From NCBI RefSeq assembly GCF_058153355.1, contig NZ_CM177019.1: 64,000 nt of DNA. One strand, 5' to 3'. Both the position numbers and the translations under genes were made by a program. Positions 32,085 through 36,521 of the stretch are shown here, piece after piece. Under the pieces are notes generated by a model, which saw only the letters and a list, made by a program, of their open reading frames with translations, had not been told where the DNA came from and did no database searches. Each line of letters opens with the position of its first letter. Positions within the stretch are counted from its first letter, which is position 1.

Positions 32085-33041
32085 TTAAACCACCCGATCC
32101 AGCCCCAACATGCCGCGAGCCTGAATGAAACAGAGCAGCAACGTTCCCCATAAGGCCATCGTCAGGTAGGGGCTTATCCCGAGAATATTGAAGCCGCTTT
32201 CAATAATTTGCAGAAGAAACAGCGCCAGCACCATACCAATTATCCGCCCGCTGCCGCCGTCCGGATTAACCCCGCCAAGTACTGCCGCGAGGATTGACAC
32301 CAGCAAGTACGATTCGCCATAAGAGGCCTTAGCCGAGTTGAGTTTCGACATCATCAAAAATGCCGCTACCGCACAAAGCAAGGCGGAAATGACATAAACC
32401 CAAATCAGCACCCGACGAGTGTTAATGCCGGAGTAAAGTGTTGCTCGTTCGTTAGAACCAATCAGATAAATGGCTTTACCGAGCGGCGTTTTCTCCAGCA
32501 ATACCCACAGTCCCAGTGCCACTGCGGCAAACAACCACATCGGTAGCGGAATACCGAACCATTGCGCATGATTCAACCACAGCACCCATGAGGGATAATT
32601 GGCAATGGCGCTACCGCCTGTCACCAGAATATTTACCCCCTTGAGCAACGTCATCATCCCAAGCGTTGCAAGAATTGGCGACACTCGAATACCAGCAATC
32701 AATACGCCGTTACATAAACCGATTATCACCGCCGCGCCAGCGCCCGCCAGCAGCGTAGCGACAACCGTAGCAATACCCGGTGGATACTGAGTCGCCACCC
32801 ACGCCATCACCAGTGAACAGGCGTTAGCAGTGGCAATAATTGACAAGTTAATGCCACCGCAAAGCATGGTCACCGCCATAGCCAACGCCAGAATGCCCAG
32901 CACGGGCATTTGCGAAGCGACGGACTGGAAATTACTTATCGACCAGAAAATCTCCGGCATAGTAATGCTGAAGGCGGCAACAGTTAGCACCAGCAGGCCG
33001 ATCAAGTAAAACTCAACGTTATTACGCCACGATTTTTTCAT
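32085..33041 (-). CDS. sugar ABC transporter permease (second of two)
   Basis: Polytopic membrane ORF; start taken at MKKSWRNN..., which overlaps the upstream permease stop in an ATGA arrangement. Confidence 0.75.
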   Translation of the reverse strand: MKKSWRNNVEFYLIGLLVLTVAAFSITMPEIFWSISNFQSVASQMPVLGILALAMAVTMLCGGINLSIIATANACSLVMAWVATQYPPGIATVVATLLAGAGAAVIIGLCNGVLIAGIRVSPILATLGMMTLLKGVNILVTGGSAIANYPSWVLWLNHAQWFGIPLPMWLFAAVALGLWVLLEKTPLGKAIYLIGSNERATLYSGINTRRVLIWVYVISALLCAVAAFLMMSKLNSAKASYGESYLLVSILAAVLGGVNPDGGSGRIIGMVLALFLLQIIESGFNILGISPYLTMALWGTLLLCFIQARGMLGLDRVV

Positions 33042-34009
33042 AGCAGACTCCGGTTCTGATGCTGACTCCACGCCGTGGCGCTAATGCTGGCAACGATGAT
33101 GATGCCTGTGATCAATGTTTGCCAGTAAGACGAGACTCCCAATAAATTTAGCCCGTTTTGCATCACAGCCAACAACACCACGCCGAGCAAAGTACCGGTT
33201 AACGTGCCGCGCCCGCCGAGCAAACTAGTGCCGCCAAGCACCACCGCAGCCAGTACTGTCAGCTCATAACCCAGAAGAGAATCGGGGGCGACAGTCATCA
33301 CCGTCCACGACTGCACTACCCCCGCAGCACCAGACATCAATCCCATATAGCCGTAAACGAAAAGTTGCAGTTTCAGCACGCTAAAGCCGATGCGACTGGC
33401 TGATTCACGGTTCCCGCCAAGGGCATAAATTTTGCGCCCTACACTGGTGAAATTCATGATAAACGCTGTCAGCAGCACCACCGTAATCATGGCGATCAGC
33501 GGCAGACCAAGGCCATAGTCATAGCCGTCAACATCGGTGTACTTGAACAACATTACCCCCTGCTCAAACCACGGCGGAAAGTCGTACAGCCACACACCTT
33601 TACTCAACCATAACAGCAGGCCATAGAAAATATTCAGCGTCGAAATGGTGATGATGATAGAAGGCACCCGTAGGCGATTAACCAGTAAGGCGTTTATTAA
33701 GCCAAGTAAAATGCCGATGCCGCCCGCCAGGGCAAACGCGACAGCAAAGTTGCCACCCATTTTTTGCAGCAACAGCACCATGCCGTATTGCGCAATGATG
33801 GTCATTGCTGGAAACGAAATATCAATTCCACCGGAAATTAACACCACAAACAAACCACAGGCGAGAATAGTCAACATGGCATAGTTATTGGCGAGATCGT
33901 ACAAATTACCGAATGTCAGAAACTCGTCGCTGCGCCAGGCAAGGCCAACAAACAGCACTATAATCAGTAATGCCAGCCAGAATTCATGGCGTTTTTTCAG
34001 TTCAGCCAT
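33038..34009 (-). CDS. sugar ABC transporter permease (first of two)
   Basis: 323-aa polytopic membrane ORF MAELKKRHEFWLALLIIVLF... Confidence 0.75.
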   Translation of the reverse strand: MAELKKRHEFWLALLIIVLFVGLAWRSDEFLTFGNLYDLANNYAMLTILACGLFVVLISGGIDISFPAMTIIAQYGMVLLLQKMGGNFAVAFALAGGIGILLGLINALLVNRLRVPSIIITISTLNIFYGLLLWLSKGVWLYDFPPWFEQGVMLFKYTDVDGYDYGLGLPLIAMITVVLLTAFIMNFTSVGRKIYALGGNRESASRIGFSVLKLQLFVYGYMGLMSGAAGVVQSWTVMTVAPDSLLGYELTVLAAVVLGGTSLLGGRGTLTGTLLGVVLLAVMQNGLNLLGVSSYWQTLITGIIIVASISATAWSQHQNRSLL

Positions 34010-35486
34010 TTACCACCTCCGCAATCCTGGCCTGAGAACTGCTGTCAGGCAGGAAGCTATGGGTGATCTGACCTTTTTGCATTACCAAAATCCGGTGGCT
34101 TTGATACCACGCTTCTTCAATTTCATCGCAGATCATCAATACCGCAATGCCATGAGCCGCCAGATCGCTGATAATGCCGTATATTCCTGCTTTGTTGGCG
34201 ATATCAACACCGACAGTCGGGCTATCGAGAATCAACAGTCGTGGCCCAATCGCCAGCCATTTGGCGATCGATACTCGCTGCGCGTTACCCCCGGAAAGCG
34301 TATTCACCGGGAGATGTGGGTCAGAGACTTTGATGGTCAATGCCTTAATTAGCCTGTCCACCAGGTCACGCACTTTAGCTTCACTCAGAAAGCCGAAGCG
34401 ATCTTTTACCTTGTGAAAAACAGTGCTAATGATGTTGTCTTCAATAGATTGCGCCATCACCAAACCGCGCGACATGCGATCTTCCGAAACATAACCAATA
34501 CCGTGGCGGATGGCGTCCTGGTTACTATGCAGTGTAACCGGCTGACCGTTGATGAGGATCTCACCAGCATCCGGTCGGGTCATACCAAACAGACTCAGAC
34601 ATAATTCCGTGCGCCCCGCACCAAGCAGGCCAACAATCGACACCACTTCGCCCGCTTCCACCCGCAAGTTAATATTTTGATATTCCCCATGACGACTTAA
34701 ATTACGCACCTCCAGCACTGGGTTGCTGGATTTTCCCTGCCACAACTCTCGCACCTGATATTCAAACTCCTGGCCGGTCATCAGGAAACCGAGTTGTTTT
34801 GTGGTCATCTCTGCAGCCGGAAAGGTCCCGACCAGCTCACCATCTTTCAACACTGAAATACGGTCGGAAACTTCCATCACCTCTTCCAGACGATGACTGA
34901 CGAAGACCACGCAGATCCCGCGTTCCCGCAATTGATGCACCACCTGTAATAACCCTTGCACTTCCTGATGGGTCAGCGAAGCGGTTGGTTCATCCATCAC
35001 GATCAACCGTGCGTCCTGCGCCAGTGCACGGCAAATTGCCACCAGCTGACAGCGGGCAATTGAAAGCTCAGAAACGAGCGTATCCAGTGGCAATGTGACG
35101 TTAATACTGGTCATTGCCGCCTGCGCCACCTCACGCAGACGACGTCGGTTAACAAACAGACCGTGGTGATAGTGATTCACGGCGATATTCTCCCAGACAC
35201 TCAGGTTAGGAAATAAAGAGAGGTCCTGATAAATCACCTGAATCCCCTGCGCCACCGAAGCGGCGGGTGTCAGCTTTGACCAGTTTTTCCCACCAAGCGT
35301 AATTTCCGCCCCCTCATCCGGGCGATAAACACCGGACATAATTTTAATCAACGTCGATTTACCACAGCCGTTTTGCCCGGCAAGGCAGTGCACCTCACCC
35401 GACATAAAGTCGAGAGAAACATCGCGCAGCGCTCGCGTGGCATGAAACGTTTTGTTGATATGACGAAGGGAAAGGAAGGTTTCCAT
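34002..35486 (-). CDS. sugar ABC transporter ATP-binding protein with two cassettes
   Basis: Two Walker A motifs (GQNGCGKST; GLLGAGRTE) and an LSGGNAQR signature; start at METFLSL... with an AGGGGA Shine-Dalgarno. Confidence 0.85.
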   Translation of the reverse strand: METFLSLRHINKTFHATRALRDVSLDFMSGEVHCLAGQNGCGKSTLIKIMSGVYRPDEGAEITLGGKNWSKLTPAASVAQGIQVIYQDLSLFPNLSVWENIAVNHYHHGLFVNRRRLREVAQAAMTSINVTLPLDTLVSELSIARCQLVAICRALAQDARLIVMDEPTASLTHQEVQGLLQVVHQLRERGICVVFVSHRLEEVMEVSDRISVLKDGELVGTFPAAEMTTKQLGFLMTGQEFEYQVRELWQGKSSNPVLEVRNLSRHGEYQNINLRVEAGEVVSIVGLLGAGRTELCLSLFGMTRPDAGEILINGQPVTLHSNQDAIRHGIGYVSEDRMSRGLVMAQSIEDNIISTVFHKVKDRFGFLSEAKVRDLVDRLIKALTIKVSDPHLPVNTLSGGNAQRVSIAKWLAIGPRLLILDSPTVGVDIANKAGIYGIISDLAAHGIAVLMICDEIEEAWYQSHRILVMQKGQITHSFLPDSSSQARIAEVVNG

Positions 35487-35534
35487 AGCATCCCCTGGCA
35501 ATAAGAATCGGGGCTTTCGCCCCGAAGAAATGGA

Positions 35535-36521
35535 TTAATAAAGTGAGTCAATATTGTCTTTGTTGACCAGTAATACCTTATGGAAACGGATAATTCGCTT
35601 ATCCATATCTACGTCGGCCTTACCGAGATTCTCCATTTCTAATCCAGGTTTGATCTCTTCACCCTTCAGCAACGTGCTGGCGACGGCCGCGAGTGCGTAA
35701 CCTGCAGAGGCCGGATCGTAAGTAATCCCTTCGGTGATATCACCACTTTTAATCAGTGATGCCGCCTGTGAAGGGATCATCATGCCATAGACTGCGACTT
35801 TATTTTTCGCCCGTTTCTCTTTCACCGCACGTCCCGCGCCAATCGGACCGTTTGAACCAAAGGAGACAACCGCTTTCAAGTCAGGATAGGTTTTCATCAG
35901 GTCCAGTGTGGTACGACGTGAGTCATCCACACTCTCGGCAACCGGCATGCGGCGGGTAACTTCATGCATATCCGGGTAATGCTCTTTCTGGTATTTCACC
36001 AGCAAGTCAGCCCATAAGTTATGCTGCGGCACGGTCAAACTACCCACGTAAATCACATAGCCGCCCTTGCCACCCATGCGTTTCGCCATATGTTCAACAT
36101 ATTCAGCGGCAAATTTTTCGTTATCAATGATTTCGATATCCCAGTTAGCACTTGGCTGACCGGGGGATTCGTTGGTCAGAACCACAATTCCGGCATCTCG
36201 CGCTTTTTTGAATACCGGTTCCAGCACGTTGGCATCGTTTGGTACAATTGTAATTGCATTAACCTTACGGGCGATTAAATCCTCAATGATTTTAACCTGT
36301 TGCGGAGCATCAGTACTTGAAGGCCCCACCGGTGACGCATTAACACCAAAGGCTTTACCCGCCTCGACCACACCTTCGCCCATGCGATTAAACCACGGCA
36401 TACCATCGACTTTCGAGATATTCACCACGACTTTTTCCGCTGCCTGGAGCGGCGCAGAAATTAGCGCAGCGCCTAATAACAGCGAAGACACCATATTGAT
36501 AACAAAACGTTTATTCATCAT
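35535..36521 (-). CDS. periplasmic sugar-binding protein of the ABC transporter
   Basis: 328-aa ORF with signal peptide (MMNKRFVINMVSSLLLGAALISAPLQA); C-terminus ...VNKDNIDSLY resembles LsrB/YtfQ-type binding proteins; gene order SBP-ATPase-permease-permease. Confidence 0.75.
   Translation of the reverse strand: MMNKRFVINMVSSLLLGAALISAPLQAAEKVVVNISKVDGMPWFNRMGEGVVEAGKAFGVNASPVGPSSTDAPQQVKIIEDLIARKVNAITIVPNDANVLEPVFKKARDAGIVVLTNESPGQPSANWDIEIIDNEKFAAEYVEHMAKRMGGKGGYVIYVGSLTVPQHNLWADLLVKYQKEHYPDMHEVTRRMPVAESVDDSRRTTLDLMKTYPDLKAVVSFGSNGPIGAGRAVKEKRAKNKVAVYGMMIPSQAASLIKSGDITEGITYDPASAGYALAAVASTLLKGEEIKPGLEMENLGKADVDMDKRIIRFHKVLLVNKDNIDSLY

Follow-up and report, generated by a model that had tools for sequence, protein, structure and literature searches.

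A four-gene sugar importer operon beside yahK, very probably an intact orthologue of the Aau D-ribulose transporter

What does a sugar transporter carry that lies next to yahK in one Escherichia strain and is missing from that position in E. coli K-12, and is this copy still in working order? The question is raised by a 64,000-nucleotide stretch of DNA (contig NZ_CM177019.1 of RefSeq assembly GCF_058153355.1; the window, below), in which a reading made from the sequence only had described a four-gene sugar ATP-binding cassette (ABC) transporter at positions 32085-36521. We find that the four genes are very probably an intact orthologue of Aau (AauABCD), the CUT2-family binding-protein-dependent ABC importer of enterohaemorrhagic E. 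coli (EHEC). Aau, for accessory L-arabinose uptake, is encoded by Z0415-Z0419 (ECs_0374-0378) in O-island 17 of O157:H7 (PMC11127945). It is not a new system: the transporter, its ligand, structure, regulator and role in the gut are already known from O157:H7, in publications of one group from 2024-2025 (PMC11127945, PMC12307932), and the locus carries little weight as a discovery. What we add is minor, namely apparent deletion scars in K-12, candidate AraC and CRP sites, an intact ATPase in a divergent lineage and an upstream insertion. Orthology, intactness, ligand contacts, genome position and purifying selection were computed here, and the affinities, the structure, the dependence on AraC and AraB and the fitness in mice come from the literature on the O157 orthologue; by analogy, the system would be expected to work in the same way in the present strain.

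Identity and state of the transporter

The sequence-only reading had proposed a protein search for a homologue of the binding protein with a defined substrate, and such a search of the PDB gave 9I1M, the crystal structure of EHEC O157:H7 AauA with alpha-D-ribulose bound (PMC12307932), which matches the window protein at 7.7e-213 and differs from it at 3 of 328 residues. None of the three changes relative to 9I1M (Q64P, V201D and Q297E) falls at a ligand contact, and all six published D-ribulose contacts (K37, W43, E118, H167, E196 and S223; PMC12307932) are kept. The O157 protein binds D-ribulose with a dissociation constant (Kd) of 1.98 uM, compared to 598 uM for L-arabinose, and its thermal shift is 16 degrees with D-ribulose compared to 2 degrees with D-ribose (PMC12307932). 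The near-identity of the window AauA to this measured protein suggests that a D-ribulose Kd around 2 uM and weak binding of L-arabinose carry over to it. The earlier guess of a furanose or pentose substrate thus agrees with the published ligand.

The gene layout was described correctly from the letters alone. Four consecutive minus-strand open reading frames (ORFs) in the ORF list of the window, at 35535-36521, 34002-35501, 33038-34009 and 32085-33071, form one tightly packed operon. The first, aauA (35535-36521), encodes a periplasmic solute-binding protein of 328 aa with a signal peptide at about residues 1-27 and a Pfam Peripla_BP_4 domain (3.4e-62). It is followed after a 48-nt gap by aauB (34002-35486), which encodes a fused two-cassette ATPase of 494 aa with two ABC_tran domains (Pfam, 4.7e-55), and then by two permease genes with BPD_transp_2 domains, aauC (33038-34009, 323 aa, 4.9e-34) and aauD (32085-33041, 318 aa, 6.1e-32), with overlaps of 8 nt between aauB and aauC and 4 nt between aauC and aauD. 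Comparison with orthologues annotated by the Prokaryotic Genome Annotation Pipeline (PGAP) places the likely start of aauB at ATG 35486, inside an ORF that itself runs to 35501; likewise the likely start of aauD is ATG 33041, in an ORF that runs to 33071, and the PGAP-annotated orthologue is 957 bp long. A Peripla_BP_4 binding protein, an ATPase with two nucleotide-binding domains (NBDs) in one polypeptide and BPD_transp_2 permeases together place the system in CUT2 (TC 3.A.1.2). Plus-strand ORFs over the operon, such as 33888-34352 and 36172-36612, were taken as spurious on account of their position antisense to strongly supported genes.

The copy in the window appears to be in good order. 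Compared to an O157-like genome, AauA, AauB, AauC and AauD carry 3, 4, 4 and 3 substitutions, and compared to NZ_AP027764, the closest complete genome, AauA carries 1, AauB 2 and AauD 3, with AauC identical. All four genes have ratios of nonsynonymous to synonymous substitution (dN/dS) of 0.04-0.09 against two other copies, similar to yahK, which argues that they are maintained by selection. In AauB, NBD1 is canonical (Walker A GQNGCGKS, Walker B LIVMDEP), whereas NBD2 is degenerate (GLLGAGRT, LLILDSP) and retains LSGG, so that one consensus ATP site is expected. The aauB gene has Gln at codon 87, lacks an early stop at nucleotide 259 and runs to its full length of 494 aa. In contrast, aauB of the O157 Sakai/EDL933 type has an amber codon at position 87, the Q-loop glutamine, and PGAP marks an internal stop there (extracted O157-like locus 6003-7487); in the Sakai annotation only a 392-aa AauB without the NBD1 Walker A remains (extracted Sakai locus 21400-22578). 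A stop at nucleotide 259 was already described in TUV93-0 and is the same single-nucleotide polymorphism as the Sakai-type amber codon (PMC11127945). Thus, unlike in the Sakai and EDL933 references, the ATPase is intact here, and a divergent Escherichia lineage still has the functional form. The same four-gene order and the same neighbours (yahK on one side, the ASCH-domain gene and yahJ on the other) are found in NZ_AP027764 and in O157 Sakai, where the layout is yahJ (ECs_0373), the ASCH gene (ECs_5377), the operon (ECs_0374/0375/0377/0378) and yahK (ECs_0379), and the operon therefore occupies the O-island 17 site.

Promoter and probable regulation in trans

How is the operon controlled? 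The sequence-only reading had seen no cognate regulator next to it, and indeed neither the ORFs of the window nor the annotated orthologous loci contain a regulator gene beside the operon, which is explained by the action in trans of AraC, encoded elsewhere. In O157:H7 reporter constructs carrying about 300 bp upstream of Z0415, L-arabinose was the sole inducer, and the activity of the promoter was abolished in a delta-araC mutant (PMC11127945). D-ribulose itself does not induce the operon (PMC12307932).

The corresponding region of the window, Paau (36522-36773, minus strand), extends from the stop codon of the ASCH gene to the start of aauA and is 97-99% conserved in NZ_AP027764 and in the O157-like genome. 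Scans of 31900-36950, in which the number of hits did not exceed that expected from shuffles, found no consensus sigma-70 promoter upstream of aauA and no terminator after aauD; the lack of a sigma-70 consensus would fit an activator-dependent promoter. Neither PMC11127945 nor PMC12307932 mentions an AraC binding site or motif in Paau. We located a putative AraC site at 36633-36670 (minus strand), consisting of two direct half-sites, TGCCCGTTTTGTCCATA-TTTA-TAACCAAATTTTTAATA, spaced 21 bp apart like araI1-araI2. The window has two occurrences of this tandem pattern, compared to 0.11 expected from shuffles, and the copy in Paau is correctly oriented and lies 21 nt from a -10-like TATTCT (36611-36606); in the araBAD promoter of K-12 this distance is 20 nt. 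The other tandem match, at 6420-6457 on the minus strand (TATCTTCAGCTCCCATA-4 nt-TCGCGCCATGCCCCAGA), is probably due to chance.

Directly upstream of the putative AraC site is a palindrome at 36681-36697 (minus strand) that, judged by its consensus, may be a CRP site. NZ_AP027764 has cGTGAtgattgTCACA here and the O157-like genome cGTGAtgaatgTCACA, each near TGTGA-N6-TCACA; the sequence of the window is GTGATGATTGTCATCAC, in which an extra T gives GTCATCAC compared to GTCACAC. With this insertion GTGATGA/TCATCAC becomes a perfect palindrome of 7 bp, and the TCACA half-site is weakened.

Within the operon, a terminator-like scan picked out a GC-rich hairpin with a 7-bp stem and a GAAA loop in the aauA-aauB spacer (35508-35525, minus strand). 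It might tilt expression towards the binding protein, either by partial termination or by stabilising the RNA; its fold energy (-18.6 kcal/mol, z = -1.46) is not unusual and is weak evidence for such a role. No Rfam family was found within or beside the operon in a scan of 28000-44500.

Taken together with the O157 work, these features suggest how the system would operate. AauA would bind periplasmic alpha-D-ribulose with an affinity in the micromolar range, some 300 times that for L-arabinose, and the loaded protein would dock onto the AauC/AauD permease pair. Import would be powered by the fused ATPase AauB, with NBD1 as the predicted catalytic site and NBD2 degenerate. The operon would rely on core-genome functions in place of a regulator and a kinase of its own: AraC would activate transcription on L-arabinose, probably via the paired half-sites at 36633-36670 and assisted by CRP, and the L-ribulokinase AraB would phosphorylate the imported D-ribulose, as reported for O157 (PMC12307932), and so pass it to the pentose phosphate pathway. 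In the gut of streptomycin-treated mice, O157 needs Aau to reach full fitness (PMC11127945).

Absence from K-12, distribution and neighbouring genes

The sequence-only reading described the operon as absent from this position in K-12, and this proved correct. In K-12 MG1655, yahJ ends at 342507 and yahK starts at 342884, leaving 376 bp between them (extracted K-12 locus 6509-6884), and in a BLAST comparison with K-12 the window is unmatched from 32157 to 39896, with the exception of a remnant of about 70 bp at 36751-36820. This segment, equivalent to O-island 17 plus an insertion sequence (IS), exceeds the operon, and includes an ASCH-domain gene and, in the window, the IS. The placement of the operon between yahK and yahJ is accordingly right on one side, where yahK (30949-31998) follows downstream after 86 nt, likewise on the minus strand, and loose on the other, where the IS-split ASCH gene separates the operon from yahJ (ORF 40169-41341, minus strand). 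Presence in K-12 and the standard references had been named as the finding that would speak against absence; K-12 is without the operon, and the O157 references have it.

The K-12 spacer is informative about how this difference arose. Three pieces of it align with the window in colinear order: spacer positions 1-158 with 31999-32156 (95.6% identity), which takes in the final 72 bp of aauD (32085-32156); positions 222-291 with 36751-36820 (92.9%), a piece that straddles the ASCH gene's 3' end; and positions 316-374 with 39897-39955 (96.6%), downstream of yahJ. Spacer positions 159-221 gave no convincing alignment with the aau promoter, and the deletion junction is thus not placed to the base. 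The same scar is present in a blood isolate, NZ_CP059003, where PGAP annotates the aauD remnant as an incomplete coding sequence. Because remnants of both aauD and the ASCH gene remain in the spacer, the K-12 state suggests a deletion scar, left in a lineage whose ancestor carried aau and the ASCH gene and lost both.

The comparison of presence and absence that had been proposed for this locus showed that 2212 of the 5426 complete E. coli genomes carry at least 80% of window 32000-36900, with the site unchanged in every example looked at, and that a further 2823 contain only short pieces of it. According to the published work, most Aau loci belong to phylogroups B1 and E, and Aau is largely missing from A and B2 (PMC11127945). 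The flanking core genes (prpR, yahK, yahJ, yahI and lacZ) are about 94-95% identical to those of K-12, O157/Sakai-type and other E. coli, and the flanks of the window are 96.5-98.5% identical to NZ_AP027764 (strain 2017-02-2CC), which indicates that the window comes from a divergent Escherichia lineage, about 5% from K-12 and O157 and outside the set of complete genomes. Given the remnants in K-12, the same scar in an unrelated blood isolate and the intact same-site copy in a lineage diverged by about 5%, we lean towards the view that aau is an ancestral Escherichia locus that was deleted in K-12 and other strains of the phylogroup A/B2 type, and not a horizontally acquired EHEC-specific island; with similar, modest confidence we would add that the candidate AraC site at 36633-36670 places it in the arabinose regulon. 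The scars qualify the description of the locus as horizontally acquired or as a pathogenicity island, and also its reported association with the enterocyte-effacement locus (LEE). In a urine isolate, NZ_CM135150, the region from yahK to the neighbours of lacZ is rearranged, with IS1A abutting a slightly shortened ASCH gene directly beside lacZ (extracted locus 4288-5394); neither the aau operon nor the prp/cod/cyn region is present at that rearranged locus.

The ASCH-domain gene of the window is split into a 3' part (36774-36898, minus strand), within the segment absent from K-12, and a 5' part (39368-39660, minus strand) that contains the ASCH domain (7.3e-13). When the IS and one target duplication are removed, the halves rejoin as a 136-aa ORF matching the ASCH protein of NZ_AP027764. 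The inserted element (36899-39367, plus strand, 2469 bp) belongs to the IS66 family, with tnpA, tnpB and tnpC and the Pfam domains HTH_Tnp_1, TnpB_IS66 and DDE_Tnp_IS66; its termini begin GTAAGCG and it is flanked by an 8-bp target duplication, CCTTCACC, at 36891-36898 and 39368-39375. It lies 377 bp upstream of aauA, with transcription directed away from that gene. Along 80% of its length (tnpB and tnpC) it is 97% identical to ISCro1-family copies; the first ~500 bp, comprising the left end and tnpA, had no near match, and no full-length copy was found in the 5426 complete E. coli genomes.

Further upstream, yahJ on the minus strand has a +1 A insertion at 40165-40185 (TATATT to TATAATT) that causes a frameshift with a stop at 40169-40171; its ORF of 390 aa, compared to 460 aa in K-12, reflects either a pseudogene or a sequencing error. 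Between yahI and yahG there is a copy of IS621 (IS110 family; 42379-43656), with a 326-aa recombinase encoded at 42571-43551, and directly beside it are naRNA4 repeats derived from repetitive extragenic palindromic (REP) sequences (43681-43750 and 43774-43843). The corresponding interval of K-12 contains yahH and REP repeats. IS621 encodes a bridge-RNA-guided recombinase known to target REP sequences.

Alternative readings and comparison with known systems

Two other identities for the transporter were weighed against Aau, and both concern its ligand. RefSeq suggests an Lsr-like importer of autoinducer 2 (AI-2), as every annotated E. coli copy of the binding protein that was inspected carries the PGAP name "autoinducer 2 ABC transporter substrate-binding protein", and LsrB is the second-best NCBIfam match of the protein (9.4e-32), with LsrB structures matching at 1e-21 to 1e-23. 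The LsrB equivalog model, however, scores 110 bits compared to a cut-off of 384, and the resemblance to LsrB in the sequence-only reading is thus real and distant. According to the rules of Pereira et al., as relayed in PMC3386761, an LsrB-type AI-2 receptor is more than 63% identical to the LsrB of S. Typhimurium and has all six of K35, D116, D166, Q167, P220 and A222; by these rules AauA falls outside this class, and compared to LsrB 5GTA it keeps one of the six AI-2 contacts (K35), the others being changed (D116 to E, D166 to Q, Q167 to H, P220 to F and A222 to S). Furthermore, no lsrK, lsrR, lsrF or lsrG lies nearby among the window ORFs or at the annotated orthologous loci, and the crystal structure of AauA contains D-ribulose (PMC12307932). 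An AI-2 importer is essentially refuted, and the RefSeq name is misleading; "D-ribulose/L-arabinose-binding protein AauA" would be apt. It is also highly improbable that the physiological substrate is a different sugar, such as L-rhamnose, galactofuranose, D-ribose or L-arabinose, with D-ribulose binding being incidental. RhaS (TIGR02637) is indeed the best NCBIfam match of the binding protein (2e-39), and AraG and YtfR top those of AauB. Moreover, the original name of the system refers to L-arabinose uptake, a delta-araE mutant was partly rescued when Aau was over-expressed (PMC11127945), and the published ligand screen covered a limited set of monosaccharides, making a better ligand conceivable (PMC12307932). 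These matches are nevertheless far under the equivalog cut-offs (RhaS 135.7 bits compared to 342, AraG 425.6 compared to 689, YtfR 415 compared to 850), the NCBIfam search gave no YtfQ-type match to the binding protein, so that this half of the earlier LsrB/YtfQ likeness falls away, and the Kd for L-arabinose and the thermal shift with D-ribose are poor next to the values for D-ribulose (PMC12307932).

The reading of these genes as a working Aau importer has also to be set against the state of their surroundings. The operon could be structurally intact and silent, or on its way to being lost through local gene decay: the IS interrupts the ASCH gene, yahJ is frameshifted (+1), IS621 lies between yahI and yahG and the CRP-like site has gained a nucleotide, and in the species at large about 59% of E. 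coli genomes have lost the operon by deletion, while in O157 Sakai-type strains it is amber-inactivated. We regard this as quite unlikely, in view of the four full-length ORFs with canonical motifs, their low dN/dS and the untouched state of the ~300-bp promoter fragment with its AraC-like site. Several observations do count against a fully working copy under AraC. The decay of its neighbours makes a loss of use in this lineage conceivable, and the insertion in the CRP-like site, which is missing from the NZ_AP027764 and O157-like copies, could weaken expression. The IS, at 377 bp upstream of aauA, is beyond the ~300-bp fragment sufficient for regulation, and a longer-range effect is possible. 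The AraC site is putative, identified by its match in motif and layout, and a lone half-site (TAGC-N7-TCCATA, with up to 2 mismatches) is uninformative, with 33 matches in the window scan compared to 41 expected; araC and araBAD themselves lie outside the 64-kb window. Finally, Q64P in AauA is unique among the copies compared, being absent from 9I1M, the O157-like genome and NZ_AP027764.

Among named systems, Aau of O157:H7 is the closest, with the same genes, order and chromosomal site, proteins 98.7-99.2% identical, and a nearly identical promoter that includes the AraC-like site. The differences are the amber codon 87 in aauB of Sakai and TUV93-0, where the window gene is intact, and, in the window, the three AauA substitutions, the 1-nt insertion in the CRP-like site and the IS66-family element in the upstream ASCH gene. 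A Klebsiella pneumoniae protein, 3D02, matches over 302 of 302 mature residues (2.9e-187, about 94% identical) and evidently belongs to the same family of binding proteins; it is a structural-genomics deposit called "putative LacI-type transcriptional regulator", a name that gives no function. The Rbl system of Citrobacter rodentium (ROD_24811-61) is a CUT2 D-ribulose importer with more than 60% nucleotide identity to aau (PMC11127945). Rbl has its own D-ribulokinase, RblK, and is used exclusively for D-ribulose, whereas Aau is without a kinase and relies on AraC and AraB (PMC12307932); in agreement with this, no kinase gene lies beside the operon among the window ORFs or at the annotated orthologous loci.

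The more distant relatives share the general architecture. LsrACDB, the source of the RefSeq product name, is of the same transporter class and has the Peripla_BP_4 fold, and differs in its gene order (lsrACDB). YtfQRT-YjfF, the galactofuranose importer of K-12, likewise combines a binding protein, a fused ATPase and two permeases, and the gene order is the same, as the sequence-only reading had pointed out; this order is, however, generic to the class and not specific, and the NCBIfam scores for YtfT (63-97 bits compared to 535) and YjfF (75-123 compared to 363) are, like that for YtfR, below their cut-offs. Scores for AraH and RbsA/C are also far below the NCBIfam equivalog cut-offs. AraFGH of K-12 resembles Aau in being regulated by AraC and in carrying L-arabinose, and differs in having a single permease gene.

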